From: a virus
DNA length: 41,022 bases
Virus record (IMG/VR): IMGVR_UViG_3300002772_000001
Location: 1 to 41,022 of that record
Reading direction: 5' to 3' (one strand)
Shown: one piece after another, positions 1 through 25,048 of the stretch
How the letters are laid out: every line of letters starts with the position of its first letter
Numbering within the stretch: the first letter of the stretch is position 1
The notes under the pieces: model-generated
Seen by the model: the letters and a program-made list of their open reading frames with translations, nothing else
Database searches by the model: none
Told to the model about the DNA's origin: nothing
Position numbers and translations under genes: made by a program

Positions 1-39
1 GCCCTCGTAGCTCAGTTGGATAGAGCGGCCCCCTCCTAA
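1..39 (+). repeat. attL core: copy of the 5' half of tRNA-Arg(CCU); not a complete tRNA
   Basis: Parses as gccctcg/ta/gctc/agttggata/gagc/g/gcccc/ctcctaa: acceptor 5' strand, D arm, anticodon-stem 5' strand, then a 7-nt loop with anticodon CCT. The following bases (ttgccatag...) cannot pair as the anticodon stem and there is no T arm. Confidence 0.85.
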
Positions 40-437: not shown

Positions 438-2501
438 TCAATTGCCCGGCCAATTAAGTGAACCTGACCCCTTTTCGAAGTGAACCTGACCCCGTTTTCG
501 TAGCAGTGATGCTTCATGCCGCGACCGCATCAGCGCCATTTCCAGCACGAAGCATTCATCGTAGCGCAGTCCCCATTGCTTGCCGGCAGGCATGGCAGGT
601 GCCGTCTCTATCTGTGTGACATTGCCATCGGCGTCCTCCACGGGCGTGTAAACCGCGTCGCGAGCCTCCCATTCGTCGTAGCACATCAGGCCGATTTCGA
701 AGGCGTCAATGCCGTGCTTGGCGAAGGCATCATGGACTCGTTGCGCCATCGTGCCGACGTGCCACCGTGCCTTTTCGCCCTTCGCGGCGACAGCTTCCTT
801 GAACTTGAATCTGTACCACTCAACTTCCGCCCATGCATCCAGCCATGCCTGTGGGATTGGCTCGATCTGCTCCTTCTGTGTTTCGTCAGAGGTATTGATC
901 GTGGCGGTGCCGGCATAGACAACATTCCAGCGTTGTCCCGACGATCCGAGCGAAATGGTGTTATCAGCGGCGGGTCGAAATGAAGACGCCGTGACCTGCG
1001 CTATCGACACAGTATTCACACTGAGGTATAAAGATGATGAGCCGCCATTCAAGGTAGTAGTCGTGCCCTTATGTCCAATGCCGTAGCTAAGGTTATTTGA
1101 AGTGTCCGCAAAACAAAATGAGACAAAAGAAGCGTCAGTATTTGTCCCTCTGAACCCTCGGTTGTTTACTGTGGTTACGTATCCGGGGAAATAGTATTCG
1201 CCAGCCACTTGGCTCACGGCCATAACTGATGTAGATGAGTCATCACCATTTTTAATCAACGATTGCCCGGACGTGCTGACATCACGCAGGATGGTGTTGT
1301 TTGCATTTCCGCTATTTGTGACCGTATGCCCGTTGGCAAATACATTGCTCAGGTCAACCTTGCAGCCAGATGTGCCGGCAAGGAATGTCAGGTTAATGGC
1401 GTCGAACTGGTTGCCAGTAAACACGGCAGATGAAAGGCCTACGGAAACGTCACCAAGGATTCGGCCACCGATAATCTTACCGCCGTTAGTTCCGAGAGGC
1501 CCGGTGCCTTTTTGGATGGTCAACTTTCCATATTGGCCGCCTCGGACTGTCTGAGAGCCGCAGTCAATAAACAGTAAGCCACCTGTTTTCTGGCTTGTGT
1601 AAACATTGGACAAGTCGTGATACAGCGTTGCGGTTCCGGAAACGCCAATCTCAATGTCATAGCCTGTGGCTGTAGCGTCGGTCGTTTGGTAAATGTCGCT
1701 GTGGTCTGTGATATGGAAACCACTACCCGTTGCCTTTACGGCACGCCCGTAAGCCCAGCGTGACCCACAGTTGACCATGCCGCATTGGTTGCCAGAGAAT
1801 GTGACATTATGCCCAGTGAGGGTTGGAGCTGCTGCGTCGCCGTAGAAGTTGATGTTGATGAGCTGCACATTATTGCCAGTAGACGCCAGAATGGGGCCAT
1901 TGTCGTTCTTGGTAATGCGTGCAATGCCGCCAGAGCTTGATAATGTCTGTAGGTTATTCGATTGTGAAAGATTATTTGCGTTGTAATGTAGGCCAATGAA
2001 ATCAATATTGAAGCCCGTGTTGATAGCGGTCTGAATTGCTGCGGTATGGTCCATGACTGGAGCGCCGGATAAGACATCCGCCTTCATCACGGCGTTCATG
2101 TAATCCAGGGGCGTTACACGTTCGCGAGCCTTGTCTTGCAGTAAGCCGGGCACCGCGCCTGCACCGGCCTGAAGGAAGCCGACGAGGGATGCCCCCTAGT
2201 TTGCTCCGGTGCCCGCAAGATCAGACAGGTCGGCACCAGCGGATACATTGTCTCGCGTCCAGATGGTGGATCCGCCTGAATCCTTCAGAGCGTAGCGATA
2301 CTGCTACGGCAAAAGGTATATGATGGCCTCGCCGCGCGCATCTAGCACGATGGGGTTAGTATTGGCAACAGACCCAGCCTTGTCGGTGTACGTGGCAAGG
2401 GGCGTCGTGGTCCCAGTGGCGTAGGTGTATAGGAAGCATCCTGCCGCGGGAGAGCCCGCATTGAAGAACTGCTGTTTTGCCGAAGGAGAGAGCGAAGCCA
2501 T
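438..2501 (-). CDS. Tailspike/tail fiber with C-terminal peptidase S74 intramolecular-chaperone domain (687 aa; needs read-through of 2 in-frame TAG)
   Basis: Fragments 2304-2501 and 438-2153 plus the unlisted segment between them share one frame. They are joined by TAG at 2304-2306 and 2196-2198. N-terminus is MASLSPSAKQQFFNAGSPAAG..LYTYATGTTTP, and the neck motif GASLVGFLQAGAGAV..QDKARERVTPLDY spans the joins. The C-terminus SDETQKEQIEPI...WHVGTMAQRVHDAF looks S74-like. True stop is TGA 438-440. Confidence 0.85.
456..500. repeat. Tandem direct repeat, 22 + 23 bp (aagtgaacctgacccc(g)ttttcg)
   Basis: Copy 1 at 456-477 and copy 2 at 478-500 differ by one inserted g. The repeat lies in the last codons of the tailspike ORF. 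Confidence 0.9.
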
Positions 2502-2718
2502 GTGTTACCCCAAGAAGGTCTGGATGTTGTTTTCGGTATTGATCGGCGTGGCGATGGCCTCACCAGCTTATGCCGCCACCGCATATTGGACGGGCCAGCA
2601 GGAACAGGTTCAGACGGTTACTGGAAAGTTTGTCTGGCGCTGTTACTACAATTACAACGGACAGGTTTTCTCGCGACTCTTTGAAACGTCGTGCGCGTCA
2701 AGTGTCGAGGTTGAGTGA
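2500..2718 (+). CDS. Small secreted protein (72 aa, signal peptide), antisense to the virion operon (moron-like)
   Basis: ATG 2500 with AGGAG at 2484-2488. N-terminus MCYPKKVWMLFSVLIGVAMASPAYA/ATAY is a typical Sec signal with an AxA site. Stop TGA 2716-2718. No TAG. Confidence 0.6.
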   Translation: MCYPKKVWMLFSVLIGVAMASPAYAATAYWTGQQEQVQTVTGKFVWRCYYNYNGQVFSRLFETSCASSVEVE

Positions 2719-2960
2719 TGCTTATTGAAAACAGCGCGGCTGTACGGATGGCAATGTCGGTGGTGATTTACCCCGCCGCAGCCTTTGTGCTGTACGGATC
2801 AGCCCGGATCATCGCCATGGTGCTTGTTCGCGTGCTTCCAGACTCGAAGCTAAAGCGGAAGTTATTTACCGACACCGACACCGGCTTGCTGGCCTACAAA
2901 CCCGGTGTACGGGGCAAGAGATCGCTCAAAGGCAGCTCGCTGCGCCACGGGGATTCGTGA
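2715..2960 (+). CDS. Small membrane protein (81 aa), translationally coupled to the preceding plus-strand ORF
   Basis: ATGA-type overlap with 2500-2718. Hydrophobic stretch VVIYPAAAFVLYGSARIIAMVLV. The 3' end overlaps the convergent minus-strand gene by about 100 nt, so the end is uncertain. Confidence 0.4.
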   Translation: MMLIENSAAVRMAMSVVIYPAAAFVLYGSARIIAMVLVRVLPDSKLKRKLFTDTDTGLLAYKPGVRGKRSLKGSSLRHGDS

Positions 2961-4901
2961 CAGGATCTTTTGTGATGCTGGGCTGGCTGGATTAAGCATG
3001 AGCTGGGCCAGCTTGCCGCGAATCTCGTCCGGTGCACCGAATAGCTTGTAAGCGGCATCCAAGGGCTGCACAAGCCGCGAGATGATTCCGCTACCCTGCA
3101 GATTAAGACCAGTCGATTTCGACACCTCGCCAAGTAGCGATTGCGAGGCAAGGTTCTGCACGGTGTTGGAGCCCGCTGAACGTCCAGCGGTTTCCGATGC
3201 GGCTTTCTTGCTTAGGTCACCGCCCACTGCATGCAATACCTGCAATTGGTCGGGGCTGAATACGCCCTCTGCCGTGGCGCCCTTATAACCCGTTGCCTTC
3301 TGGGCAATGTCGTCCAGCTTATTAAGGTTGCCCATGTAGCGGGCCGGCGTGAGCGTGGGATTGCCAAGCGCATCCGCCACGGGAGACCCGGCCTTGTCGA
3401 GAAACGCCTATCCGGTCTGCATCTGATTCACGGGGCCGCTCATCTACTGATAAGCGTCTTTCGCTTGGGCGTACTCCGGTGAAACCTTCTCGAGCTCGCC
3501 AAGCAATTGTTGCTTCGTTCCCTGCAGGGCAGCCTACTGGTTACGGCCAAGCGCGGTCGCGGCATTCGGCTGCATCATGTCATCAAGAGCCAGCTTGACG
3601 TAATGAAGGCCACGCACGGATGTCAATGGATTATCGAGACTCTCGCCCTGCTCTAGCGCGAGCTTTTTGGCTAGCGCCGATGCCTGCTGAATTCCTGGAC
3701 GCGAAGACAGCTGCCTAAGCCCGTCAGACGGAAGTAGCATGTTGTCGCGCACGGCATTGGCGGCGTCAACCGTACTCGGCTCATTGCGGAAAAGACCACC
3801 GTATTTTTGAAGCTCAGCCTCCTTGGCCTGGTCTGCCGCATTCTTTGCTGCGGCTATCCTGGCCACATCAGTTTCTCCGGCCTAGCCATAAAGCTGATTC
3901 GCCGCCCCCTGTCTGGCGGCGATTGCGCCGTCCAGATCGCTTGGCGTTCCCGCCACACCGCGCACGGCACCAACCCGCGCCGCGTTGTTGTCGAGCCCGC
4001 GCTGCACAAACTGATTCAGCGTGCCATCTGCCGCGCCAGCATCGGTCACAGCGCGTTGCAGCTGGCCGATACCAGCATTCCCCGTGGCCTCGGCTAAGGT
4101 CGGCTGAACCCCTGGCACGGCGCTCGCCTATGGCGCCATATTGCCGCCTTGGCCGAATCGGCTGATGGTGTTCGCAATGATGCGGGACTGCCCGCTATCG
4201 GTCAGCGGATCAACGAGGCTGCGCAGAGTGCGCGCACCAGCGCCAACGACAGCTGGAATGGCCTGACCTACGACGCCAGCACCAGCGCCAACGCCCGCAT
4301 TAAGGAGGCGCTGCCCTTGGCCTTGCGTGTTATCCAGTGGCTGCACAGCGCCCTGAGCGGCACCGGCAAGCGCGGCACCACGGTAGGTCTGCGGCACCAT
4401 CGAATCAATGACGCCAGCCCCCTTGAGCGCAGCACCAGCACCGATCGCCTGCATGGCTTGGCCGGAGATATTGCCCGCAATACCCGCCTTGGTTGCCATC
4501 AGCGGGGCGTCAGTGGCGTTCGCATCGGTCTACGCCTGCCGCAGTGAGGTGTCAGCTGCCCTAGCCTGATCGCCAATCACGTTTGGCACGCCCGCGACCT
4601 ACGTCAGCACATCTTCCGGCGAAAACACCATCTTGCCGATATTCGCCGCCGCCTACCCTGCGCCACGTAGGTTATCCATGACGGATTTTCCCATGCCGGC
4701 GAAGTAGTTCTGGACATTTGAGCCAAGCCCATCCTGCGGCTTGTCATCAAGCCCGACCAGATTGGTCAAGCCCGCCTTGCGGTAGAAGTCCTGCGCCGGC
4801 ATGTCAGCGTAATACTTCGTCCGAATCGCAGCCGCAAGTTTCCCATCTGGAACATCGGCGTACTGCGGGTACTTCTGGCGGAAGTCGTCGAGGACCGTCA
4901 T
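2862..4901 (-). CDS. Large internal virion/ejection-type protein (679 aa; 8 in-frame TAG)
   Basis: Fragments 4653-4901, 4128-4499, 3882-4118, 3534-3866 and 2862-3380 are in one frame. They are separated only by TAG at 4653, 4599, 4530, 4128, 3882, 3534, 3444 and 3408 (plus-strand 'cta' starts). ATG 4901 overlaps the upstream TGA (ATGA). Stop TAA 2862-2864. Gly/Ala/Gln-rich. Function is inferred from size and position only. Confidence 0.7.
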
Positions 4902-6841
4902 TTCAGAAGCCCGAGCGGGTCATTGTCATCGGCAGTTGGCGTGGCCTGCTGAGTTGCACCTGTCGCACTCGGCTTGTAACCGAGCGTCGTCGATGGTGCG
5001 CCGAGGTCAGCATAGGACTGTTTTGCGGTGTCCATGAGATTGCGGTATTTCTTCTGCGAGGCTGCAGTGAGCAGCGACGTTCCTGGCGAGTTATTGCCAA
5101 GGATCTGATCCCGCTTGCTTTGCAATTGATCCATTTTCTGCCGCATGAAGTCGGCCAGTGTGGCAATTGCTGTTGCGCGCTGCTGCGGCGGTGCGTTCGG
5201 GCTGAGGTTGGCAATCATCTGGCTCGTCTCGCCCTCGGTCGCCACGCCAGACTTGATCATCTTCTGAATTTCAGCCGATGCCAACGCAACGCCATTGTTG
5301 TAAGCCTTTAACGCATTGCCTGTAGCGGTGTCAAAATGCGAATTGACCGCGTTTTCAGCGGCGTTGAAAAACCCATTGTTCTGTGGCAGTTTTTTCGAGT
5401 CTTCCAGCAAGTCAGACAAGTGACTGAGCGCCGTATTCGCCGCCACAATGCTGCCGCCCGTGGAGGTAGAGGCATTGCTGGCAAGGTCTGCCATGAACTT
5501 CTGATTCTGCGCGTACTGCGGAACGTTAAGGTCTGGATTGATCGCCTAGGCCCGGGCAAGAATCTCCTGATTGGCGGGAGTCTGCATGAAGCGGGAGCTG
5601 ACCGGCAGCTTGTAGGATGCAATGCCCTGCGCGATGCTTTCACGGGACGGAGGCAACGGTTGATCGGAGGTGTCGTCACCGGGCATCTTGCCGCTCAACA
5701 TGTAGTTGCGTTTCTGCGAGTCGGTCAGCGCGATCCCTTGCGTGGCAAATCCCGCCAGATCGGCGGCGCGCTTCGTCGCGACATCTTCGCCACCACTCTT
5801 TGCTGGCGGCATCACGCGACCACTCGGCGCCCCACCATTGGCCCGAGCCAGCACGGATGGAACATAGTTCTGCGTCTCGGAAGGCAACTGCATAAGAGCC
5901 TGTACCGGATCGCCGCCAGCCTTGGACAGCGCCTGATCAACACGTCCCGGCCCGGCGTTGTAGGCCGCCAAGGCAAGCTGCGTGTTCCCGCCATACTTGT
6001 TCGTCATGGCGTTAAGGTAGTCGTTACCCACGCGCATATTCTCTTGCGGCGAGCCGTCCTGAACTGGCTGTATGCCATAGCCAGGATTGGCGGCAGTGGA
6101 CGGCATGAGCTGCATCAAGCCCTGCGCACCAGCCGGGCTCGCGGCATTGGGATTGCCGCCAGACTCCTGCTGCATGACGGCGTTCGATAGACTGCCCGGA
6201 ACGCCCTGCTGAGGCGCAGCTTGCGGAGCCGCCTAGCCGCCCGCGTAGTTGACGGGCTGTGCCGATCCGTCGCGCGGATTGAAGGCGGCATAGCCTTGGT
6301 CCGTTTTGATCGCAGTGAAGTTCGGCGCCTTGTCAGGAACGGATATTTTCAGCTTGCCGTCTGGGCCATAGACCTGATCGCCAGCATGGTAAACGGCGTC
6401 ATCCTTCTTGGTTTGTGGTGCCACAGTGTCAGCAATCTGCTTCATGTGCGGCAGCATGGACGGATCGAGCTGCGCTGGAAGATTCGGGCCAAGCACCTTC
6501 TGTGCTTGTGGGTAAATCGTCTGATACAGGCTCGCAGCACCCTGCATATCGCCAGTGCTGGCCATATTCGTAATCATGCGAGCGTACTGGCCGACGCGCT
6601 GTAGATCGGCATCCTATAGCGATGCTGCCTGAGCCTGCTACTGCTGGCCGATCTGCTGAATCTTTATGCCAGCATCCGAATCAGCGCCATAAATCTGCGA
6701 CAGCGCGGCCTAATCTCCACCGAGAGCCGGCTGGGCATACTGTGCCAGCGTTTTACGGGTGCGCGTCGCCTGACCATCCTTGATGCCGGACTGCATGGCG
6801 TCGTACATGTTGGGCATCATGAGCTGGCCGATGTATCCCAT
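4898..6841 (-). CDS. Internal virion protein with lytic transglycosylase (SLT/GH23) domain (647 aa; 5 in-frame TAG)
   Basis: ATG 6841 with GGGGAG 9 nt upstream. Fragments 6233-6577, 5546-6175 and 4898-5494 are in one frame. TAG at 6710, 6638, 6614, 6233 and 5546. SLT motifs: ESGGNPNA..GAQGLMQLMPSTA...LALAAYNAGPGRV. Stop TGA 4898-4900. Confidence 0.85.
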
Positions 6842-6898
6842 TAGATATGGCTCCCCATAAATCCGAAGGTGATATTGCGAGGATTATTCACATCAACC

Positions 6899-7918
6899 TC
6901 AGAATGAAATCTTGGGCGGGGCATATTGGCCGGCATCGGGAATTGGCGGTATATAGTTGCTGCCGTAGGGGTTGTTAATGTTGCTGTTCCATTGACTCTG
7001 ACCGTAAGCGTTGCCGATACCCTGCATGGCCTGCTGGCCAAAGTTCGACCACGCGTTAGCGCTGCCATAGATGCCTTGTGCGCGGGCCTGTCCGGCGTTC
7101 TGCAGATTGGCGCCCACCTGGTTGGCCGTATTCATGCCTAGCTGACCTGTCGTGTTGGCGCTGGTCTGCGCCATGCCGCTAAGCGAGGCGAGCCGGTTCA
7201 TGTATGGCGTATAGCCCTACTGGTCGGCGTAGTTCTGGCCGTATTGCGTCAGTGCCTTGAGCGTAGCTCCGGAGTTCAAGCCGCCGCGTGCGGCAGCGCT
7301 TGCCTGTACGGCCTTGTTGCCTTCATCCAGACCGAACTGGTAGCCCGGCGCGGCACGGAATGCAGAGAACGCATCCTGCTACGCTTGCGAGCCACTCACG
7401 GATGGATTCGACCCACCGCCAAGCGTTATGGGCGCTCCGGTTTCATGACCCACTGCGCCAACGCCGCCAGACCCCATGGAGGCGGAAATGTCGCCATTGA
7501 TCTTGTTCTGATCGGAGCCGCTCCAATAGCCTGTATTCCACTGCTTCTGATGCGCGGCCAGCTCGCTATCCCACGCCTGCCGATAGGCCGGGTTGCTCGA
7601 ATAGAGTTGCGCATTGGCAACGGGTATGCCCTGATCGTTGGTGGATACATATGGCAAGCCACCGCCTGACCCGGAATAGGGCTGACCCGACGAGCCGTTA
7701 CCTATGCCCAGCATATTCATGTACTGGTTCAGGCCAACCAAGCCGGCCTGACGAAACGGCGCCTAATCCTGACGCGACTGGTTGAACATCTGAAGCTGCG
7801 TCTGATTGGCCTGGTTGGCCGCGCCAGCCTGCGTATTTGCGGCGCTTTGGGCTGCATCTGACTACTAGCTTGCCGAATAAAGGCCAACTACGGCTGCGGC
7901 TGCGACTCCCCAAGGCAT
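6899..7918 (-). CDS. Gln/Asn/Gly-rich virion protein (339 aa; 5 in-frame TAG including an adjacent TAG-TAG pair)
   Basis: ATG 7918 preceded by AGGAGAG. TAG at 7865, 7862, 7763, 7379 and 7217. Listed fragments 7379-7741 and 6899-7201 are in frame. Stop TGA 6899-6901. Confidence 0.75.
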
Positions 7919-7919
7919 G

Positions 7920-8093
7920 TCAGCTCTCCTTCACAACGTTTCGGCGTATGTCGATCATCTAAAGCGCCATGTCACGGCATTCCTCAATCGTCAATTTTCG
8001 ATGTTCCTTGGTGCCCGCGCCCGGATGTACCTGCATTGAAGCCAAGGATGCGAAATACATATCAAACGGAATGCGTTCGTCCTCGTGCAGCAT
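7920..8093 (-). CDS. Small hypothetical protein (57 aa; 1 in-frame TAG)
   Basis: ATG 8093 overlaps the upstream TAA (TAATG). TAG at 7959-7961. Read-through ends at TGA 7920-7922, just before the next ATG (7918). Confidence 0.45.
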
Positions 8094-8674
8094 TAGTCGT
8101 TTCTCCGAACACAGATAATCAAGGTAATCCGTTCTTCGTCACTGTTATTAGTGACCCAGTGCAGTAGCGAGTTGTCGAACGTATAAATATCGCCAGGCTC
8201 CGGGCTGAGGCTTTCATCCTCGAAGCAAAATGCCTGATCCTTGTTCCCTTTGACCTGCACGGCGAACTTTTCGTAATGCCTCGCGTGCCAGCCAGTATCT
8301 ATGTGCGGCTTTACCCCGCCACCCGGAGGAATGCGGGTGATGAGTACGCCACCAAGCTGTTTTCCGCCAACTCGGCGCACCACATGACGGGCCAGCGACC
8401 ACGCGGCAGGAATCTTCCCGATTACGGGATACCAAACTGACGTATGGGCATCGTTGAAGGATTCGCGGTCGCCCTTGAAGTTGGCCCAGTCGTTGTACCG
8501 CACCCAAATGTCATCTATCGACTTGTGGGGCGTGTCGTATGCTTCCGTTCGCTGCGTATGTGTGTTCCACACTTCCGGGTGGTCGGCGATCTGTGAAACA
8601 AGCCGGCTCACGTCAAGCCCTGAACCAAGTCTACGAATAGACATGCCTTGCGTCATCGGCTCACAGGTTGTCAT
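8093..8674 (-). CDS. Aspartyl/asparaginyl beta-hydroxylase-like cupin/2OG-Fe(II) oxygenase (193 aa, TAG-free)
   Basis: Uninterrupted ORF. Metal-site context KPHIDTGWHARH ... LLHWVTN and overall family resemblance, by eye. Stop TAA. Confidence 0.6.
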   Translation of the reverse strand: MTTCEPMTQGMSIRRLGSGLDVSRLVSQIADHPEVWNTHTQRTEAYDTPHKSIDDIWVRYNDWANFKGDRESFNDAHTSVWYPVIGKIPAAWSLARHVVRRVGGKQLGGVLITRIPPGGGVKPHIDTGWHARHYEKFAVQVKGNKDQAFCFEDESLSPEPGDIYTFDNSLLHWVTNNSDEERITLIICVRRND

Positions 8675-9143
8675 TGATCGTCTTCGGGTTGAACCGTGGC
8701 AGCGGGGCGATCTGCGCGGCGCCCGACAAGCTATTGTTCTGCGCTACTTGCGTCTGCGCGTTCACCGTGTCGGTGATGGCAGAAACTTGCTGACCCGCTG
8801 CCTGCAGCCCGGTCTGCACGTCAAGCACCTGCGTCTAAGTGTTGGCCGTCTGCGTGATGACTTGAGGCACGGTTGGCGCATCAATGCCGCCGAGCCGGGT
8901 TTCCGCAATTTCCATAAAGAATTTGTACCAAACCGGCATCATGCGGCCAGAATCATCAAGCACGGCAACCTGCGCCCCGGGGAGCCAATTAACCCGTTTG
9001 CGAAGGCTGTTCGAACCGGCCCACGTTACCCTTCCGGTGGCTGAGCCAATGCCCGCCACTGTGCGGGCTGACGCCGTGAAGGAGATGAATGGCGAGCTGG
9101 CACTGGATACGCCAGCGACCGTTGCGCATGATGCCGTTGCCAT
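8661..9143 (-). CDS. Virion-associated hypothetical protein (160 aa; 1 in-frame TAG)
   Basis: ATG 9143 overlaps the upstream TAA. TAG at 8835-8837 in the context TQTANT[TAG]TQVLDVQTG. Stop TGA 8661-8663 overlaps the next gene's start region. Confidence 0.65.
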
Positions 9144-9721
9144 TAGTCAGGCAGGCCCAGTGTCCAACTTCCGATGACGTGTGACCCGGCAGACGGATAG
9201 CTCTGCTCGAGAATGGAGGACACTACCAGTGCCGAGCCGCCGCCCGTTGTCACACTGATCGGCGCTCCGCCACTGGTAGCGGCCACTTGAAACGTGTCCG
9301 TGGTGACGTTTACTGCAAAATAGGTCGTGCCCTCGGTCAGCCCCGTTGGCATCGTGTCACCATAGATCACGATAGTGCCATTCGTTGAAAAGCCGTGACC
9401 GGGACAGGTGAATACGCCCGTAGTGACGTTGGCGATGAACTCTTTCGGATTGCTTGCGTTCGGCGCATAGCCGACGTAGGTTGCGCCGTTCCACAATCCA
9501 AGCCATTTGACGGTTGTTCCGGCTGGAATAGCAAAAGTCACTGCCGAGGATAGCGTGCGAACTGCGCCTGAGGATGCACCGAAGGTCGCGGCCATCTTGG
9601 CATACGTGCCGCCGGTAACCTCATTGGCTCCGGTGGCTCCGGGGAATGCCGTGTGCGCACTGATCTAGGTGATCGTCAGTGCGTTGAGCATGGTGTCTTT
9701 TGAGGCGGTGACAAAGCTCAT
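9143..9721 (-). CDS. Virion-associated hypothetical protein (192 aa; 1 in-frame TAG)
   Basis: ATG 9721 overlaps the upstream TGA (ATGA). TAG at 9665-9667 (codon 19). The N-terminus MSFVTASKDTMLNALTIT[TAG]ISAHTAFPGATGANEV continues into listed ORF 9143-9595. Confidence 0.7.
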
Positions 9722-11130
9722 TTGCTGCTCGCTGTAGCGTCAAGGTTGGCACCGTACACCGCGATCTTCACGGGTTCGGTTGTGCGGATGCGGTAGACGC
9801 GGCGGCGGGACAATCCAAGGCGCCTAGCCACGCCACGGTTGCGATAGGCGCCAATCTGGCCTATGCGAACTTCGCGACTGTTACTGAAGTTTCGGCAACC
9901 GTCATCCGACCAGTCCAGCATCCATAGAGGATCGGCACCCGGTGTTGGCGGCGTGATCCCGTCAAGTCCAACGCCCATCTCGGCAATGATTTCAAGCCGG
10001 CTATGTCGGAGCCACTTATTCTCGTTCTCGATAACGGCCCACGCCCTCTCACGGGTGATCGAATTTCCGTTATCGGTGAAGGCATTCAGGTCCAGCACGT
10101 ATAGGTTGCCGCTGACGTAATCGCCGAGCACGTGCTGGCCGCCGAGGAACATGTAGGCGTTTCCGCGGTGCTGTTCCTGTGCGCCCGTGATTGGGTTGCG
10201 ATAGGTCAGCTGCGTCCAGCGACGCGACGCGGCATCAAACGCCCACGTGGCATACCCAGGAAACGTCAGCACATAGAGCGTATGCCCGTTCTGCTGGTAG
10301 CAGTAGCCCCATGCGCCAGAAACGTCGCCATAGCCCGCGATGGCGTTTTCCAGAGCATGCGTGGAGATGCGCGTCGGGCTGTACCCTTGGGCCATATAAA
10401 CCATGCCGATGCCGCTATCGTTCTGACTGAGCCAAAACACGGTGGAGTCGGACTTGGCGGGGGAGTATTTGGCCGCGCAGCCATATTCCATGATGGCGGT
10501 TCGCACAAAGACGAGATCCTTGTCGCCCGAAGTCTGCGCAATCTCCGTTGTCGTGGTGTTGAACAGCCACAGCTCGCGGTGATCAGATAGCACCGAAACG
10601 ATGGGGTCAGGATTAGCCTCGGAACTGGCAAAGTTCAGTGCATCAAGGGTGGTTGCATCGCCGATGTTCGTCCAGCCGTAAGTGCCATTCGTGTTGGGGA
10701 AGATGATGTAACTGTCTTGATACGTGCCCTGCGCTGTCGTCGGAGCGCCCGTAACCGACACATAGGCCAGTGTCGAGAAGGTCAGAACATGCCATCCCGC
10801 TGAATGCATGACGGCGAGCTGCGTGTCGTTGTAAACAAGGCTTACACGCCCCGCCCCAGGAACGGCGCCGATCAGCGTTGAAACGCCAGCCGTCGTGACC
10901 TGATATAGCGAAGCACCCGAGACGACCCAGCCAAACCCATTGGCCGTTTCCGCCGCACGGATCGGGCCTGTGCCGATGGTGGACAGCAGCCGCAGACCCG
11001 GCGCTCCGTAGAACATGCCCTCTTCGGACGACCCCGGAGGCGCGCCCTCAAAAAACAGGTTGACCAGCGTCTAGCCGGCCAATGGGAGCGATCGCGACTG
11101 ATAGGCCGCGCCAAGGAAATCAGTCTTCAC
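9718..11130 (-). CDS. Large virion protein, possibly a head-completion/DNA-stabilisation (P22 gp10-type) protein (470 aa; 1 in-frame TAG)
   Basis: GTG 11130 overlaps the upstream TGA (GTGA). TAG at 11071-11073 in AAYQSRSLPLAG[TAG]TLVNLFFEG, then the listed 432-aa ORF. The family assignment is from memory only. Confidence 0.55.
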
Positions 11131-11777
11131 CGAGCAACCTGCGTCAATCGCGAGCCGCGCGTGAAGCGCTGGCGCTCGTTGGACAACGCGGCCATCAGAC
11201 GGCCCGCATATTGAGACTTCCAGAGCGGCAGGCGACCGTCTTCACCGATGAATGGGGCTGACTCGGCCAGCGCGGCATAGAGCCACACATCCGGATAGCG
11301 GTTGAACGCAGCGTTCAGCGTGCCGGAAGAAATGTCGGGCGCCTTCTTGTAATACCGGCCAGCGATGACCGTGCCATCTGTCATTGTCGGGAAGAACAAC
11401 AGGTTCAAGCCCTGCTGCGTGTACTTGCGGGCCGATCCGGAGCCGCCGCCCGCCTTGAGCAAGCGCAACTGGCCTTCTTCGGCGACGTAATCCATCGGGT
11501 AATCGCCCGATACCTGCACGCGGATTAGCTCAAGGCAGTCGGTGGGAAGTGGCGCGACGTTGCCAGTGGCCGTGATGGCGAGCGGCGCCTCCATTTCGGC
11601 ACAGCGCAGCGGCGGAAGTACGCTCTGCACGCCGGTCATGCCGTAATAGACAGCCTGCTCGCCCATGCTGATCAGCAGATCCAGCGTGGACTAGCTCAGG
11701 GCGCCAGCATTCGTGTCGTCGCCGTCGATCATCTTCAGCACGGCGGTACGAAAGTCGGTATAGGTCGTGAAGTTCAT
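11127..11777 (-). CDS. Head-tail connector/completion-type hypothetical protein (216 aa; 1 in-frame TAG)
   Basis: ATG 11777 overlaps the upstream TGA. TAG at 11691-11693 (codon 29). The frame continues into ORF 11127-11666. Confidence 0.65.
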
Positions 11778-12067
11778 CAGACACGGCCCCGTGAGACGCG
11801 GAAGCCCGACAGGGCTGGATCGTTCAACATGCGGTTGGCGTGCACGGGGTTACGGATGAACTCCGCAAAGCTGACGCCATTATCGTTGCAGTATTGCTGG
11901 ATGATGATGTCGGGTATCTTGGCAAGCACCCGCATTTCACTATCGCCCGTCAGGCCGGCGCTCTAAAGCGCCCTGCAATGATCGGCAATAGCATGGAGAT
12001 CATCCATGTTGGCTTCGTAGACGTGAGCCTCATGTGTGGCGCTCACTTCCTCGATACGTGCCCGCAT
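11777..12067 (-). CDS. Small hypothetical head protein (96 aa; 1 in-frame TAG)
   Basis: ATG 12067 with AAGGAG 7 nt upstream. TAG at 11963-11965 (codon 35). Stop TGA 11777-11779 overlaps the next ATG. Confidence 0.65.
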
Positions 12068-12078
12068 GTCATCTCCTT

Positions 12079-12111
12079 GAATAAAGAGGGGCCGCTATGC
12101 CAGCCGGCCCC
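12079..12111 (-). terminator. Intrinsic terminator-like hairpin after the capsid gene
   Basis: On the minus strand, a 7-bp GC stem (ggggccg/cggcccc, plus-strand 12088-12094 and 12105-12111) with a 10-nt loop, followed by UCUUUAUUC. Confidence 0.6.
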
Positions 12112-12118
12112 GGGTTCA

Positions 12119-13090
12119 TCAGCTCAGGTCAAGAATCGACGCGAGCGGCTTCTCGTCACGCACCACCAGCGTGACTTCGGTACGAATCTGCCACTGCTTG
12201 GCATCGCCCGTGGTCGCCATCTGCTCCGACTCGAACGGGCGCAACTGACCGAGGGCCAGCTTGTCCGTGTCGATCAGGTAGGCCGAAGCCGTCAAGCCCA
12301 GTCCGCCCGACGCCATCACGCGGTCAGGAACCACCTTCGTGACGCCGAAGTCATGGCCGTAGAAGGTGAACGCGGTGTTCAGCACCAAGCTGCCATCCGC
12401 CTTGCTGGACGGCACGGTCTGCTGCCGGGTCACGTTGCCGGTCAGTGCTGATACCTTCTACTTCTGCGCCGGAGGAACCAGCAGCATGGTCGAGTCACCA
12501 CCATTCTGGTACGCGGCCAGCACCGCAGCCTTCACCAGAACGTCGGAGATGGCACGGGCCGTACCTGCCACCGGAGCCGTGTTGGTGACCGGGTTCGGAG
12601 CCACGCCAGCGCCCGCACCCACGCTGGCGTTCAGCGCAATGAAGCCGTACAGGCCGCGCATCTGGCCTGCAACGCCCGAAGTGCCAGTGACGGCAGCGCC
12701 GTTGCCGATGGCTGCCGCCTCGATGTCGCGACGAAGCTCAACCATCTTCTTCGCTTTCAAGCGATTGATTTCGGACGATCGGCCGTATTTCTTCACCGTC
12801 TCGGCGGTGTTGGACACGCTCAAGGTGTCCTGGAAGATCTGCGTGCGGTTGTTCAGCGGGCCGGGCTGGGTCTGCGCGGCGTAAGCGGCGTCGGCGCCTT
12901 CAATCGCAGCATTCGCGGCGTTGGTGGCGCGGTAGCTGTCACGGGTCCACTCGTGGAACACGTTCGACACCTTGATGCGGTCGATGGCACTGACCAGCGG
13001 GGTGTCCTACGGGTTGAAGTTGTAGATGCGGTCTTCCACATCCTCCGCCACACGGACGATGGACGGGGTAATCAGGGTGTTCGCAGTCAT
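12119..13090 (-). CDS. Major capsid protein (323 aa; 2 in-frame TAG)
   Basis: ATG 13090 with AAGGAAAAG upstream. TAG at 13007-13009 (NFNP[TAG]DTPLVSAI) and 12458-12460 (PPAQK[TAG]KVSALTG). These join ORFs 12458-12970 and 12119-12433. Lies downstream of the scaffold and is followed by a terminator hairpin. Stop TGA. Confidence 0.75.
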
Positions 13091-13099
13091 GTCTTTTCC

Positions 13100-14026
13100 T
13101 TAACCTAGCAAGTTGCCGAGGGATTGAAGGCTCTGTTTCGCATCGAAGCGTTTGAACGCCTCGGACTTGCTCACAGTCGCCCTGTTGGGTTGGTTTGCCG
13201 CCGATGGCTTAGCCACCCTTGGCAGTTGCGCAACGGGCTTGAGCGCGGCTGTTTTAGCCTGCAACTCGTCGTAGGCTTTTGCCTTAGCGGCAATCTCCCA
13301 CAAGCCTTTCTGCACATAACCGATGTCTGCGGTCTTGGGGCTGATGCCAGCCTTGCCAAGATATGCCGCCAGATCGTCGATTGTTTTCTCACCAAAACCC
13401 GGCAGGGTGTCCTTCAGCGCCTTCTCGGTAGCATCGGCTTGCTGAGCAATCCACGCTTGGCGTTGCCGCTGCGTTTCCTGCTGAACATTCGCGATGGCCT
13501 CATGTGCTGCGTTCAACTGGCCCTTGCGTGTTTCGTATTGCTCCTTCTGTGCGATGTACAGCCCCACGTCCTGTGAGGCCAATTCAACAGACGGTGGTGC
13601 GCCGATCTGCGATTCCGCAAACTTGGCGAACGCGTTCAGACGGTCAAGGGTCGCCGTCAACGCCCTTTCATTGTGCTGGCGGTATTCGTCGGCCTGTGCC
13701 TGCAGCGCCTCGACGTGCCTGCGCTCCTCCGCGACAGCCATCGTTTTCTGCGAGTAGTCGAAGCCCTTCTGAGCCAGCTCGATAACCTCGGACTTCTTGA
13801 GCGGAACGTCCTTGCCATCATGCTTAAGCACAATGGTGGCATCGTCGCCCTTGTCGCCCTCGGCCTATTCCTGACCCTCTTCGGTTTCCTCCCGCTCCTC
13901 GGCTTCCTCGCCTTCCTATTCCTGCTCAAGCTCCGGCTCAGCTTCCTGATCCGCGCCGTCCATCAGACCAGCCAGACCCGAAAGCGTATCGCCCTCGGCT
14001 GGCTGCATTTCTGCGTCACCTGCCAT
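13100..14026 (-). CDS. Scaffolding protein (308 aa; 2 in-frame TAG)
   Basis: ATG 14026. Acidic N-terminus with TAG at 13916-13918 (ELEQE[TAG]EGEE) and 13865-13867 (EEGQE[TAG]AEGD). Then a long Q/A/E-rich helical ORF (13100-13831). Sits between portal and capsid. Stop TAA. Confidence 0.7.
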
Positions 14027-14164
14027 GTTGTATACCTCGTTGGTGGAATGAATCTGCGGTGGCCGGCGCTGATCTCCGGCATGATGGCACTACTCCGTTG
14101 CCTCTGACCTAGCCAGCTAGAGAGGGACTTAGCGCATCAGTCGGCGCGTTCACCGCAAAACTTG

Positions 14165-14398
14165 TTACCCGATCGCCGCATTGATGACGTTGATCAGGCT
14201 CGTTACTGCCTCCTCTGGTGTCTTGCCAATTCCGCAGAACTCGCCGCTAGCCTCACCAAGCCGCACCAGGCCGGATTCGTTACCTATTTCAGCGCACCAA
14301 CTCGGCGCGGATTGGTCGCCGTCGAACGATAGGGCGAACTCCTTGTCGCGCGGCTTGATTTCAATGGCAAGTTCAATAAGTTTTGACAGGTTACTCAT
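14165..14398 (-). CDS. Hypothetical protein (77 aa, TAG-free)
   Basis: Complete ORF. ATG 14398 overlaps the upstream TGA (ATGA). Stop TAA. Confidence 0.55.
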   Translation of the reverse strand: MSNLSKLIELAIEIKPRDKEFALSFDGDQSAPSWCAEIGNESGLVRLGEASGEFCGIGKTPEEAVTSLINVINAAIG

Positions 14399-14676
14399 CG
14401 CCGAAACACTCCCTTGAACCGTTCAGCGCGTGATTGCTCAGCCTCGATGGCCTTGCTCTGCATCTTGCCGGTGATCATCGTCTGTTCCAGCACGTCACCA
14501 AGCCGTTTATGGCACTGGATCATGCGCCAGAGGTGATCGCGCTTCGCCTCGTCCGCTTCGATCTGCCAGCGAGCCAGGATTTCATCCTTGAGCTGCGCCA
14601 TCGTCTCGATATAGACGCGGTTTGACAGTACATCGGCGGCGAGTTGACCGCGTTCAAGCTCTTCCTATGGGGTCAT
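14395..14676 (-). CDS. Hypothetical protein (93 aa; TAG at codon 4)
   Basis: ATG 14676 overlaps TGA 14673-14675 of the read-through portal (ATGA). TAG at 14665-14667. The frame continues into ORF 14395-14601. Confidence 0.6.
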
Positions 14677-16904
14677 TCATTCTCGCCCTATTGTTCGCCC
14701 TTCGTGGCGGCCTGCAATTCGGCAATCTGCTGCTGCAACTGCGCAATCTGCTCGTTCTGCTGAGCGTCGATGTCCTTGTGCGCCATATCGTGCGCGGTGG
14801 CGACGCCGTGAATATGCGTGTCGTGCGCTTTGCGCTGAACATCAGCGGCCTTGACCCCGATATTTCCCTGATCGGCCTGCGCCTTGACTCCGAGTGAGGC
14901 CATCGCATGCTGGTGTTTCTGATCCGCCTCACGCGCCCGCTGCTGCAATTCCATCTGCTTGAGGTACGTGTCCGACTGCTGCTGCGCGCTCATCTGCTTG
15001 AGCTGGCCGTTTTCTTGACCGAGTTGTTCCAGCTGCTGCTTGGTCTGCGCCATTTCCTGCTGTTGCTGCTGTTGCTGAGCCTGATACGCCTGCGGGTTCG
15101 GCGGCATACCTGACGGCTGCGGACTAACGAAGCGTTCCGGTTCCTTGAACTCGGCGGCCTGCACGTACAGTTTGACGGTTTCGGCCACCTGAGCTGGCGT
15201 GACGATGCCGAACGGGGCAGCTTGCATCTGCACCTGCATCAGGCCCATGACGCGCGCGGCAAGTTGTTCCTTGCTGCCCGTTCCCAAGCCGACCTTGATC
15301 GTAGTGTTGAACTGGTCTTTCCACTCGGACGGATTCACAGCGACCCACGACCCGTTGACCTGCATCTGTTCGGTCTTGTCCTGGAACTGGATCGCCAGCT
15401 TCAGCATCTTGCTGAAAAGCCCCTTCATGCCGACCGCGAACATGCGCGACATCAGCTCAAGGCGCATGTCTGCCTTTTGCGTGATGATGCTGACGCCGGT
15501 CGCGGTCTTGTTTAGCGAGTTGGCGTCGGTGCCCTGCGAATAGCGCGTGAAGCCGGTGCGGTTCTCTTTCCATCCCTCAAGCCATTCGTTGAACTCGTAG
15601 GCGGGAGCGCCGAGAGCGGGCTGTACGATGGGCTGAATGGCGGTGTTGGCCGGACCGTGGCCGCGCACCGCGCCACCAGGCCGATTCTCCAGCCAGTCGT
15701 CCATGTTCACGCCAGCATCCAGGTTGATGTAGGTCCGCTGATTGACGGACAGCATCATATTGTCTTGGATAGCGCGGATGACGTTGGTGCGCAGCTTCTG
15801 TGGCTGCAACGCCATGTCGGCAGGGCAGTCGCCGAAGAACGCATGCGGACGAGGAATGGGGCATATCCACACGAACGGATGGCCGTCGCACTTTTCGTAC
15901 TCGACCAGCTTCTGCTCGATCATGTGGCAGCACAGCCATTCGGCAATGCCGTCGCCGTCCGCGTCCAGCTTGATATAGACCTCGCTGCACTGATACAGCT
16001 TGTGGCTTTCGTGCGGCTCAACAGCCGTGTAGTCGCTGTTCAGGCCAAGCTAGGCAAGCGTTTCGCTGTCGTAGCGCGAGTTGCTGCCGGCCTGCCCGAT
16101 GTCGGTCAGGTCGTAACCCTCTTCCTCTAGCTCAAACTTTCGCTTCGGGTAGACGTGGGCAATCATCGCCGGATCGTCACCCCAGCGCGCATTCGCATCC
16201 ACGCGCACTTCGTGAGGGGCGCATGCGGCCACCTTCACCGCCATGCGTTTATCTTCCTTCTTGAGCGATACCGTCAGCGTCGGTGCGGCGGGCTGCTGCG
16301 GTAGCGGCTGTCCATCCGGGCCATACTGCGCTGGCATGGTCTGTGACGGCTCAACCTGAGGTTCGTCGTCAAGCTCCCAGCCCGACTACTGAAGCATCGC
16401 CACCTGCTCCTGCGTGATGCCGGAATAGGTAGTTTGCAGATCCTCGAATTCCTCCTCGGCCCACACCTTGACGAAGCCGACCTTCTGGATCAGTGAATCC
16501 TTGAACCAGTCGTACATGATGCCTACACCGTCGTTGCGGGTGTAGAACAGGTAATTAACGTAAGCCGTGGCGAGCTGGGCAACCTGATCCTGATCGGGTC
16601 GGCGCGCCTGGAACTCGACCGCCTCGTCATCCGTCACAAACGGCTTCATGATCTGCGGCAACATCGCCTCGATCGTGTCAGCCACGTCGGTCGCTACGAA
16701 ATCGCTGCGGTCGTCAATCTCTGGCGGGGCTAGTTCGCCAGTAGCTTCGGCGTTGTAATATTCAAGGTTGCGAAGACGCTGCTAGGCAATCTCGGTGCCC
16801 GGACCGCCCATGCTGTTTTCCAGCGCCATGCGGCAGGCAAGCTCGACCTCAGCATCCGTCATCTTGGCGTGCTTGATTGACGCCTTCTTGGACGTGTATG
16901 CCAT
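14673..16904 (-). CDS. Portal protein (743 aa; 4 in-frame TAG)
   Basis: ATG 16904 overlaps the terL TAA. Fragments 16386-16685, 16050-16337 and 14688-15923 share one frame. TAG at 16782, 16386, 16050 and 14688. Motifs RLRNLEYYNAE, DADGDGIAEW and YSQGTDANSLNKTATG, plus a poly-Q coiled-coil tail. Real stop TGA 14673-14675. Confidence 0.85.
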
Positions 16905-18154
16905 TAGCGGGTAAGCCTGCGGTAGCTGATTGGTTGCATATCTTCGTTAACCATCTTGGGCGCCACACTTGCCATGTAGCGGAACATATCGGCGCCGTGA
17001 CTCCACTCGTCGTGGACGGGTGCGCCAGGCTCGCCCGTTGAAACAGGAACGCCGCGCTTGTACCGCTTGAGGCACTGAATCAGCCGCTCGCACTTGAGCT
17101 TGTCGATGTAGAGCTGGCCGAACGCCATGCGTGCCGCCTTAATGCCTGTCTCGACCGGCTGAATCGGAACGATTCCCACATCCCAGCCAAGCTCGCGCAT
17201 GATCTGCTCGGCACTCTTGCCGGTCTTGTAGTCACCGTGGGCGCCGTCGTGAGGTAGCCAGAGACGGCCCCAGTTGAGGTTCTTCTGTTTCAGCTCAGCC
17301 GAACACCAGTCGAGCGTCTTGTGGTCAACCTCGATGTACTTGATCAGCCGAAGCGACGAGATATGCCGCTGGCATAGGCCAATCGCCATCTTGTCGTTCC
17401 AGCCCAAGTCGAAAATGACGTGAACCTTGAGCGCCGGGTCATACGGGAATAGGCCAATGCGCCCCTCTTCCTGCGCCCTGGCAATCTCGTCAGCGTAGAT
17501 CGCGCCAGTCACGGCAGGCTTGCAGCGTCCTTCCCATATGTTGTCGTAGTCAGCCCTTGGTGTCGTGGCGAGCGCGTGTTGCCGCTCAGCCTCAAGCACA
17601 TCAGGGAACCACGGGTTGTCCGCGTAATTGATCTGCACCACCACGGAATCAGGGGGCGGATTCTCGATGAAACGGACGTAGGTTTCGTCGGTGTCCAGCT
17701 CGGGGTTTAGCGTGATGGTGATTCGCGACCCGTCTTTGCGGATCGTCGGGATAAGAATGTCCCACGATCGTTTGCTGATCGCCTGGGCTTCCTCGGCCCA
17801 AACGTCATCAACACCCTCGAACGACTTGATCGACTCGGCGGTCTGGTCGCTTAGGCCGGAAAATAGAAACTCGGTTCCGTTCGCGCCCTTGATGATGTTC
17901 TGCTGGACTTCGTAGAACGCGCCAAGGCCCATGGATTGAATCTGGTCACTCAGGAGCTTGTGCACGGAATCGCGGATGGACTTCTGCACCTCGCGAGTGC
18001 ACAGAAATCGTCTTTTCGACTAAGCGCCCCGGATCAGGTAGGAGCGAGCAACACCCCACGACTTAGCACCACCGCGGCCACCATGCAGGATCGTGTATCG
18101 CTGTGGGCCAAACAAGCACTGCAGCTTGGCGGGGAACTCAATCTGGCTTGACAA
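16904..18154 (-). CDS. terL: Terminase large subunit (about 416 aa; 1 in-frame TAG; start uncertain)
   Basis: Walker A in ILHGGRGGAKSWG, upstream of TAG 18020-18022, then LCTREVQKSIRDSVHKLL and the listed 361-aa ORF with nuclease-domain motifs (WSHGADMFRY). The only in-frame start after the upstream TGA (18158-18160) is TTG 18154. Confidence 0.85.
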
Positions 18155-18404
18155 AGGTCACCGTCAGGCTGGTCTTGAGTGGGTTGTCAGGATCGCCAGA
18201 CACCGTCATCGGCAGAACCTTGCCAACCAGCGTAAGGAACGCGTTCGGGTTGGTCTGCGCCTAGGTCAGCAGATACTTGGCTCCGCCCGCCTTGTCGAGT
18301 GCCGTCAGGATCATGGCCTTTACGTCAGCCGTCACCTTATTCGGTACGCCTTTTGGCCTACCCTTGCCTGCATTTCCCCTATTCGCGCCTACTTTGGGTT
18401 CCAC
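18138..18404 (-). CDS. terS: Terminase small subunit-like protein (88 aa; 1 in-frame TAG)
   Basis: GTG 18404 with GAGGAAAG 4-6 nt upstream. Motif GRPKGVPNK...ALDKAGGAKYLLT[TAG]AQTNPNAFLTLVGKVLP is of the kind seen in small terminases. TAG at 18261-18263. Stop TGA 18138-18140 overlaps terL. Confidence 0.6.
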
Positions 18405-18499
18405 GGACTTTCCTCGGGCTGCTTACGCGTCACCCATCATTGCTACGGATGCTTCTATCTCAGACCACGGTATGTGGCTTCAGTCATCGTCTTCACTGT

Positions 18500-18570
18500 T
18501 GGCGGGGGCGGACGGAATCGAACCGTCATAAGGCGGGTTAGAGCCGCTGTCAGCACCCAAGCGCGCCCCA
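18500..18570 (-). tRNA. Amber-suppressor tRNA, anticodon CUA (reads UAG); Gln/Trp-like acceptor stem, encoded CCA
   Basis: Minus-strand sequence UGGGGCG-CGCUUGGGUGCUGAC-AGCGG-CUCUAAC-CCGCC-UUAU-GACGG-UUCGAUU-CCGUC-CGCCCCC-G-CCA. The T arm is canonical (GGUUCGAUUCC). The anticodon stem has 4 bp plus an A.C pair. The 7-nt loop has U33, CUA (plus-strand 18539-18541) and A37. The acceptor stem has 6 GC pairs plus U1.C72, and the discriminator is G73. The D region is only 15 nt and I could not draw a canonical D stem. Confidence 0.8.
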
Positions 18571-18639
18571 CTAAAGATCGCATCCCAATGGCTGGCAAAT
18601 GTCGCCTGGTCCACGCTGAACGGGCGTGGCGCTGATCCC

Positions 18640-18759
18640 TTACCGTTCATACGGCTTCGGCACAGTCGGCTTAACCGGATTCGTCGTCTTGACCTTGTAC
18701 GTCAGCCAGCTATAGGCGCAGACGATGGCGAGGAGGAGTAGCAGGGCGATGGCGATCAT
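18640..18759 (-). CDS. Small membrane protein (39 aa)
   Basis: ATG 18759 overlaps the Rz1 TGA (ATGA). Sequence MIAIALLLLLAIVCAYSWLTYKV... has one TM segment. Stop TAA 18640-18642. Confidence 0.4.
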   Translation of the reverse strand: MIAIALLLLLAIVCAYSWLTYKVKTTNPVKPTVPKPYER

Positions 18760-25012: not shown

Positions 25013-25048
25013 TGCACCAACCCTCTTAGGACTGGTGCCAGTAAATCC

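Follow-up and report, generated by a model that had tools for sequence, protein, structure and literature searches.

The virus record IMGVR_UViG_3300002772_000001, analysed over its whole length of 41,022 bases (58.3% G+C; "the window" from here on), carries a prophage in whose packaging and virion genes the amber codon TAG is very probably translated as a sense codon, most likely glutamine, through a phage-encoded tRNA with the anticodon CUA (tRNA-CUA). Four independent lines support the sense reading, i.e., the tRNA-CUA itself, the exchange of TAG for glutamine codons among relatives, purifying selection on the affected genes, and a clear split between early and late genes in the use of TAG. 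That amber is read as sense in the late region had been proposed earlier from the letters of the window alone (the sequence-only reading) and is strongly supported by these lines, although the key mechanistic part, the suppressor tRNA gene at 18500-18570 (minus strand), had been missed.

In-frame TAG codons in the late genes

With TAG left open, the minus strand from 18404 down to 438 reads as a continuous chain of 18 genes. Each of the 37 positions listed in the sequence-only reading is CTA on the plus strand and an in-frame TAG in a minus-strand gene, and they fall into 16 genes, so that only the statement that "every" packaging or virion gene is interrupted went slightly too far (14165-14398 and 8093-8674 are TAG-free). 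Among 5766 late codons there are 37 TAG, 296 CAG and 72 CAA (a TAG share of ca. 9% of the glutamine-type codons), without a single in-frame TGA or TAA and with no frameshift required anywhere, and all 18 genes end in TGA (12) or TAA (6), never in TAG, as had been described. The couplings between neighbouring genes are real (start/stop overlaps of the form TAATG three times, TGATG once, ATGA four times and GTGA once), and the read-through products have the sizes given before, i.e., 88, 416, 743, 308, 323, 647 and 687 amino acids (aa).

Standard-code gene callers split this same region, e.g., the portal gene into three pieces and the capsid gene into two. PHROG profile matches, on the other hand, run across TAG sites in the terminase large subunit (terL, 5-214), the portal (15-694), the capsid (2-322) and the head-closure protein (4-465), and they likewise cross TAGs in the scaffold, a virion protein of adaptor type, an ejection protein, an internal protein with a transglycosylase domain and the tailspike. 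The early TAGs therefore lie inside genes and are not artefacts of misplaced starts. Homologues do not lose similarity at the TAG positions either, as both the profile matches and the alignments with relatives continue across them. A purine follows TAG at 27 of the 37 sites (G at 19), compared to 58% after CAG or CAA, a difference that is suggestive only.

Exchange of TAG with glutamine codons and selection downstream

Seven distinct contigs in IMG/VR are close to the window in their virion-module proteins (portal identity 75-86% where the gene is fully present). Their proteins, in code-11 translation, match those of the window from end to end, and their sole in-frame stops are TAG, at positions partly shared with the window and partly different. 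Where the window has TAG, these relatives carry TAG (18 cases), CAG (15), CAA (10), GAG or GAA (10) and few others; in the opposite direction, 45 aligned sites have TAG only in the relative, and the window has glutamine at 23 of them, compared to 6.4% glutamine among late codons as a whole. As CAA is two positions away from TAG, the pattern of exchange reflects amino-acid equivalence and not mutational proximity alone. The residue found at TAG sites in more remote homologues is also mainly glutamine: capsid site 211 is glutamine in 19 of 34 distant standard-code relatives, terL site 45 is glutamine in 47 of 120 database homologues (the commonest residue, followed here by glutamate with 36), and four sites (putative small terminase 48, terL 45, head-closure 20 and capsid 211) are glutamine in more distant phages that encode a tRNA-CUA. 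At variable TAG sites such as portal 41, 173 and 285, comparison with distant standard-code relatives is not informative.

Downstream of the first TAG, the ratio of nonsynonymous to synonymous substitution rates (dN/dS) between the window and each relative is 0.08-0.20 at dS values of 0.8-1.6, and it does not exceed the value upstream. Judged by these ratios, the regions 3' of the TAGs are translated and under purifying selection. The TAG sites themselves turn over fast, most TAGs of the window being CAG or CAA in the relatives and vice versa, and a few are shared across relatives at dS of ca. 1 (portal 41 and 285, capsid 28, head-closure 20).

The suppressor tRNA

ARAGORN detects a single tRNA in the window, an amber suppressor of 71 nucleotides (nt) with anticodon CUA, an encoded CCA end, an unpaired U1.C72, G73 and a reduced D arm (18500-18570, minus strand). 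Its gene follows the lysis cassette and precedes the first packaging gene, with 95 nt between it and the start of the recoded genes, and all 37 TAG sites are downstream of it. A tRNA-CUA occupies the same place in every relative contig that reaches this region, and the copies of the relatives (L001, L004, L005 and L006) score 46.6-54.5 bits on the Rfam tRNA model RF00005, for which the gathering score is 29. In an alignment of 11 copies (the window, L001, L004, L005, L006, L103, L111, L113, L120, L127 and L138), compensatory changes are found in 16 of 21 stem pairs and 92.6% of the cells are paired. The 1:72 position is mismatched in all 11 (U.C, C.C, C.A, U.U or C.U) while every other acceptor pair is retained; G2-C71 and an encoded CCA are likewise present in all 11, G73 in ten and G3-C70 in nine.

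The glutaminyl-tRNA synthetase (GlnRS) of Escherichia coli recognises the acceptor end and U35, separates the bases of the 1:72 pair and accepts amber suppressors readily as substrates, the classical one among them being supE (glnV44), with a CUA anticodon, G73, G2-C71, G3-C70 and a weak or absent 1:72 pair. The tRNA-CUAs of the phages share the corresponding identity features (U35, A37, G73, G2-C71, G3-C70 and a weak or absent 1:72 pair), and the constant 1:72 mismatch, which is unusual for elongator tRNAs, appears from the alignment to fit recognition by GlnRS. Compared to supE, the phage tRNAs go further in having an outright mismatch at 1:72 in all 11 copies and differ in having C at position 38, and the copy in the window is without a normal D stem and without G10. 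Global identity to phage or E. coli tRNA-Gln (40-56 of ca. 75 positions) is not discriminating. Glutaminylation of TAG suppressors in E. coli has been noted by Borges et al. (10.1101/2021.08.26.457843).

All other tRNA-CUA copies are canonical in length (74-77 nt), with the exception of L111, where the 71-nt form is found again at 205-275 with a nearly identical D region, CGCU[U/G]GGGUGCUGA. The terL of L111 is 30% identical to that of the window and has in-frame TAGs of its own, and in the tRNA of L111 the T stem differs by compensatory changes and an A-U pair of the anticodon stem is restored. A search for the exact 71-nt pattern gave no match in JGI metagenome contigs and, in IMG/VR, L111 as the only match. 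The window copy has kept its acceptor, anticodon and T arms, its CCA end and a GGG within the D region. Because the same form recurs in L111 together with compensatory changes and TAGs in terL, we take the 71-nt tRNA to be a functional variant, and at the same time the weakest link in the case for this particular prophage.

We envisage that the tRNA-CUA would be co-transcribed with the late operon, cut out of the transcript by host RNases and charged with glutamine by the host GlnRS, and that the charged tRNA, made only late, would compete with release factor 1 (RF1) at UAG codons. A scan for sigma-70-like promoters and terminators on the minus strand around the tRNA found none, which is weak negative evidence. 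Rfam at gathering thresholds gave no family in the whole window, and a permissive search of 18300-18800 returned only weak tRNA-Sec and tmRNA matches and no theta or HDV-like ribozyme.

Some of the related phages carry further tRNAs. Two close relatives encode two extra tRNAs each, ca. 2.5 kb upstream of the tRNA-CUA (Thr-UGU and Ser-UGA at 5493-5660 of L002, Ser-GCU and Ser-UGA at 1100-1277 of L005), of which the window has none. Three other contigs in IMG/VR, with terL 52% identical to that of the window and one in-frame TAG noticed in the aligned genes, harbor a tRNA-CUA of 92 nt with a long variable arm and G73 (L101 747-838; L117 12770-12861, minus strand; L124 1121-1212). It resembles Ser/Sec tRNAs or allo-tRNAs (compare PMC5389517) and, by its structure, may be a different kind of amber suppressor.

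Two codes within one prophage

Outside the late block, the remaining 47 open reading frames (ORFs) of the prophage (7125 codons) have no in-frame TAG at all, and four, among them the integrase and the CI-like repressor, use it as their stop (TAG versus CAG and CAA in late versus other ORFs, p = 4e-8 by Fisher's test). The comparison of reading frames thus strongly supports the coexistence of two codes within one prophage, the standard one for early, replication, lysis and lysogeny genes and one with TAG as sense for packaging and virion genes. The lysis genes upstream of the tRNA, i.e., the endolysin (21307-21771, minus strand), a holin candidate and a spanin pair (18937-19473 and 18756-19028, minus strand, together 18756-19473), are all TAG-free, so the preferential recoding of lysis genes expected under a lysis-timing model is not seen in the window. 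In more distant phages with a tRNA-CUA, whose endolysin is also encoded upstream of the tRNA, the endolysin gene does contain in-frame stops (L113 6115-6573 and L138 7116-7553, both on the minus strand, and L216 5748-6167; the stop was confirmed as TAG in L216 only), which indicates that the TAG-free lysis cassette is specific to the lineage of the window.

Two candidates for in-frame TAGs beyond the late block, in 18640-18879 and in 20603-21391, were rejected, as both are upstream of the likely starts. In the early region, 24842-25345 (minus strand) holds two ORFs in the same frame, one of 98 aa that stops at TAG and one of 56 aa, with 12 codons between them. These are more likely two ORFs than one gene with an in-frame TAG, since the sole homologue covers the second part only.

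Alternative explanations for the in-frame stops

Several observations weigh against the decoding that we propose. Position 38 is C in all tRNA copies, and G10, present in nine of the 11, is absent from the 71-nt form of the window; both G10 and U38 belong to the identity set of E. coli GlnRS. The tRNA of the window is atypical in itself, being 71 nt long with no more than 2-3 pairs in the D arm, a minimum-energy fold that is not a cloverleaf and a best score within the Rfam tRNA clan of 16.1 bits, below the gathering score of 29 bits. No release-factor or RF1-antagonist gene was recognised among the annotated proteins and PHROG matches of the window, the location of the tRNA and its client genes on one presumed transcript weakens the idea of a simple on/off gate, and the lysis genes are TAG-free, unlike in the lysis-timing model of Borges et al., which is not applicable here as stated. 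The unusual tRNA could also mean that the prophage has recently become defective, its tRNA having lost a functional D arm and its late genes being silent or dependent on a helper or a host suppressor; the relatives' 75-nt copies do fold into a cloverleaf, whereas that of the window does not and falls below the Rfam thresholds. We consider such a recent defect unlikely, given that the same 71-nt form is found in the unrelated L111 with compensatory changes and TAGs in terL, that the acceptor, anticodon and T arms, the CCA and the GGG of the D region are retained, and that the att repeats are intact and no other lesions are seen.

A sense codon need not stand for glutamine, and two scaffold sites align only or mostly with glutamate, a few others with lysine, alanine or asparagine, while ARAGORN labels the tRNA "tRNA-Pyl". 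That TAG encodes Glu, Lys, Ser or pyrrolysine is nevertheless quite improbable. In both directions TAG exchanges with glutamine, CAA included, far more often than with any other residue, the glutamate sites lie within an acidic low-complexity stretch, and the label follows from the anticodon alone. Genes for pyrrolysine synthesis or pyrrolysyl-tRNA synthetase (pylS/pylBCD) were not recognised among the annotated proteins of the window, the canonical T loop and 4-nt variable loop of the tRNA differ from the architecture of tRNA-Pyl, and G73, G2-C71, G3-C70, the unpaired 1:72 and U35 agree with recognition by GlnRS. The fragmentation of the portal and capsid genes by standard-code callers could also be taken as the mark of a decayed prophage with nonsense mutations, or of a sequencing or assembly artefact. 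The comparative data refute such decay or artefact, and we find it scarcely credible when 37 of 37 stops are TAG, with no TGA, TAA or frameshift, when the relatives bear different in-frame TAGs and TAGs only, when dN/dS 3' of the TAGs stays at 0.08-0.20, and when the identical sequence is present in several independent assemblies and a dedicated tRNA-CUA is conserved.

5' clustering of TAG codons and its possible purpose

Within genes, the TAGs are crowded towards the 5' end. Their median relative position is 0.175, compared to 0.57 for CAG and CAA in the same genes, the first fifth of the gene holds 54% of TAGs and 17% of CAG/CAA, and 13 of the 16 genes have a TAG among their first 50 codons (within-gene permutation p <= 5e-5; Kolmogorov-Smirnov test against a uniform distribution p = 9.5e-5). 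The same bias is found in relatives (L092, p = 4e-5; L002, 0.015; L091, 0.045; L170, 0.026) and holds also at sites that are not shared with the window.

We tentatively postulate that the TAGs serve as a translational threshold lock on the virion genes. As long as the suppressor tRNA is scarce, translation would abort early and cheaply at the 5' TAGs (within the first ca. 50 codons), early termination may in addition provoke Rho-dependent polarity, and the output of a gene would drop steeply as its number of TAGs rises. It is also possible, if somewhat doubtful, that there is no regulatory purpose and that, with an efficient suppressor on board, C-to-T changes at CAG are close to neutral in genes translated after its appearance, so that CAG and TAG drift into each other, the 5' bias then being a matter of cost minimisation, as short abortive products are cheaper than long ones; such drift would speak against the proposed purpose only and not against the decoding of TAG. 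The fast turnover of TAGs among relatives in both directions suits it, as do the low share of TAG among late glutamine-type codons (only ca. 9%), a TAG fraction that does not clearly differ between abundant and rare virion proteins, and the unrecoded lysis genes. Less easily reconciled with drift are the TAGs that are shared at dS of ca. 1 (portal 41 and 285, capsid 28, head-closure 20), and the strong 5' clustering together with a tandem TAG-TAG (codons 18-19 of the gene at 6899-7918) looks more than incidental. The complete lack of TAG in 7125 early codons is compatible with both views.

Taken together, the window may represent the first characterised lineage in Proteobacteria of temperate phages with TAG read as glutamine, with a threshold lock of selected 5' TAGs on its virion module and with an unusual class of tRNA, unpaired at 1:72 and with a nearly armless D region in two unrelated phages, but it is rather unlikely that all these parts hold jointly.

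The prophage, its host and its gene content

The first 39 bases of the window (1-39, the attL core) are identical to the last 39 (40984-41022, the attR core) and correspond to the 5' part of a host tRNA-Arg(CCU); metagenome contigs with the same element contain the full tRNA, the attR core running on into intact host tRNA-Arg(CCU). A tyrosine integrase (39990-41006, plus strand, standard code, stop TAG) adjoins the tRNA-Arg end of the element, its 3' end overlapping the tRNA-Arg sequence, and the earlier description as a tRNA-integrated temperate phage is thereby borne out. On the metagenome contigs that carry the element, the flanking DNA (64.5% G+C) is bacterial and encodes SelO, a TonB-dependent receptor and other proteins; this SelO shares 91% identity with its counterpart in Rhodanobacter sp. 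C01 and 82% with that of Dyella tabacisoli. Nine genes in this host flank are intact under the standard code and end in TGA (seven), TAA (one) and TAG (one), counts that do not establish the earlier suggestion that a GC-rich genome uses TAG less than either other stop. From these boundaries and flanks, we regard the window as a whole, intact prophage in the tRNA-Arg(CCU) of a standard-code gammaproteobacterium of the Rhodanobacteraceae from soil.

The sequence is 100% identical over 20.6 kb to a contig of an ENA metagenome assembly and over 10.8 kb to a contig of a Logan run assembly, and its integrase side is 99.9-100% identical in contigs from two further ENA assemblies and one JGI metagenome, which makes an assembly artefact unlikely. 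Megablast of 25 kb against GenBank phages gave zero matches (the best portal match among these phages is 33% identical), and a portal scan of GTDB representative genomes gave no match.

The phage is best described as a temperate podovirus whose head module is of SU10 type and whose layout resembles that of lambda. On the plus strand, a CI-like repressor (31720-32244, standard code, stop TAG) is followed by an operon with exonuclease and HNH genes and finally by the integrase. The minus strand begins with a Cro-like gene, replication genes, a methyltransferase, NinB, a resolvase, the holin candidate and the endolysin, and continues with an HNH gene, a protease-like gene, the spanins, the tRNA and the packaging and virion genes.

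All 18 genes of the late block are on the minus strand and are described here from 18404 downwards. The putative small terminase (18138-18404, 88 aa, TAG codon 48) agrees in size with the "terS" of the sequence-only reading, the name being assigned by position only (its PHROG, phrog_11043, has no known function). It precedes terL (16904-18154, 416 aa, TAG codon 45), the portal (14673-16904, 743 aa, SU10_portal, TAG codons 41, 173, 285 and 739), a gene of 93 aa (14395-14676, TAG codon 4) and a TAG-free gene of 77 aa (14165-14398). Next come the scaffolding protein (13100-14026, 308 aa, TAG codons 37 and 54), the major capsid protein (12119-13090, 323 aa, SU10_MCP, TAG codons 28 and 211), a gene of 96 aa (11777-12067, TAG codon 35), a virion protein (11127-11777, 216 aa, phrog_2941, Pfam SU10_adaptor, TAG codon 29), the head-closure protein (9718-11130, 470 aa, phrog_578, Pfam Phage_stabilise, TAG codon 20), a head protein (9143-9721, 192 aa, phrog_240, TAG codon 19) and a virion-module gene of 160 aa with one TAG (8661-9143). 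The next gene (8093-8674, 193 aa) resembles 2-oxoglutarate-Fe(II) oxygenases; it is TAG-free in the middle of the virion module, is 76-79% conserved in relatives and may be a cargo gene under the standard code. A gene of 57 aa (7920-8093, one TAG, site 7959) leads on to a protein of the DNA-ejection type (6899-7918, 339 aa, phrog_598, five TAGs including the tandem pair), an internal virion protein with a lytic transglycosylase domain (4898-6841, 647 aa, five TAGs), a virion or internal protein (2862-4901, 679 aa, phrog_5880, eight TAGs) and the tailspike (438-2501, 687 aa, two TAGs at codons 66 and 102). The only large gap in the block is an interval of 360 bp without a convincing ORF between the last two (2502-2861).

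Two repeats stand out in the plus-strand genes. A 27-bp tandem repeat (six copies at 32986-33147) lies inside the gene of a DUF7666 protein (32554-33303) and varies in copy number among otherwise identical contigs, with products of 227 aa in L007 and 335 aa in L008. A 15-bp repeat (23 copies at 34481-34826) belongs to a gene of the early-left operon that encodes a pentapeptide-repeat protein (34357-35148).

Distribution and comparison with known recoded phages

In standard-code relatives of SU10 type (L144/L145 and 65 other metagenome loci), the genes for portal, capsid, adaptor and head closure have homologues in unchanged order. Of 68 metagenome loci whose portal identity is 23-55%, L170 is the only one with both a tRNA-CUA and several in-frame TAGs. 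The standard-code relatives that come closest (52-55% portal identity, 64% G+C) are without a tRNA-CUA and have at most one TAG in the alignments, which places the origin of recoding inside the family. Lighter recoding with a tRNA-CUA at the same position is seen in other GC-rich contigs (L103, L113, L138 and L216/L217, L216 being from an NCBI assembly). L212 is a standard-code phage of P22 type, with P22 portal and coat genes, no tRNA-CUA and no in-frame TAG, and its terL (10001-11287) is 68% identical to that of the window. This likeness indicates that modules cross the code boundary and that the terminase module is common to phages with different codes and head types.

The phenomenon as such is already known. 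TAG-recoded prophages next to host tRNA genes have been described as Garnet (in gut Prevotella, Bacteroidetes) and Topaz (in Oscillospiraceae, Firmicutes) by Borges et al. (10.1101/2021.08.26.457843; later Nat Microbiol 2022), and the earlier claim of novelty for a tRNA-integrated temperate phage of a Gram-negative host was too broad, as Prevotella is Gram-negative. Like Garnet and Topaz, the phage of the window is small and temperate, integrates beside a tRNA gene of a standard-code host, reads TAG as glutamine by our interpretation, has an integrase without in-frame TAG and is fragmented by standard gene calls. It differs from them in its host, a soil gammaproteobacterium of the Rhodanobacteraceae, in its 58% GC, in its TAG-free lysis genes and in the 5' clustering of TAGs; moreover, most genes of Garnet and Topaz contain TAG, whereas here recoding is confined to the packaging and virion module downstream of the tRNA. 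Neither the word "Proteobacteria" nor a positional bias of recoded stops occurs in the text of Borges et al. (10.1101/2021.08.26.457843).

In crAss-like, Lak and other gut phages, UAG is read as glutamine by a phage tRNA-CUA in standard-code hosts, with recoding enriched in late genes (10.1101/2021.08.26.457843; PMC10879173). These code-15 crAss-like and Lak phages are virulent, large, of low GC and from the gut, whereas the phage of the window is temperate, 41 kb long, has 58% GC and is from soil. Some of them carry release factor 2, tRNA synthetases or theta ribozymes beside the tRNA (10.1101/2021.08.26.457843; PMC10879173), and no such machinery was found in the window. In a survey of jumbo phages, alternative codes reached 5.75-8.75% in rumen, pig gut and human gut and 0-0.65% in other habitats. 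In the literature we did not come across a recoded temperate phage of Proteobacteria or from soil, a negative that is weak evidence owing to incomplete coverage. The case is notable for its new host group and its soil, GC-rich setting, for the clean change of code at the tRNA gene, for the crowding of TAGs near gene starts and for the unusual tRNA.

Implications

These results take phage recoding past the low-GC phages of gut Bacteroidetes and Firmicutes, to a lysogen of a soil gammaproteobacterium with a simple lambda-like layout. Prophages of this kind are easily miscalled as defective, since annotation under the standard code shreds them. Current models of recoding are constrained by the abrupt change of code at the tRNA gene, by lysis genes without TAG and by the crowding of TAGs at the 5' ends of genes. 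Relatives of the host genus are culturable aerobes, and a related isolate lysogen could be a tractable system for competition with RF1 without release-factor genes, for the timing of the tRNA and for the control of the lytic cycle by recoding.

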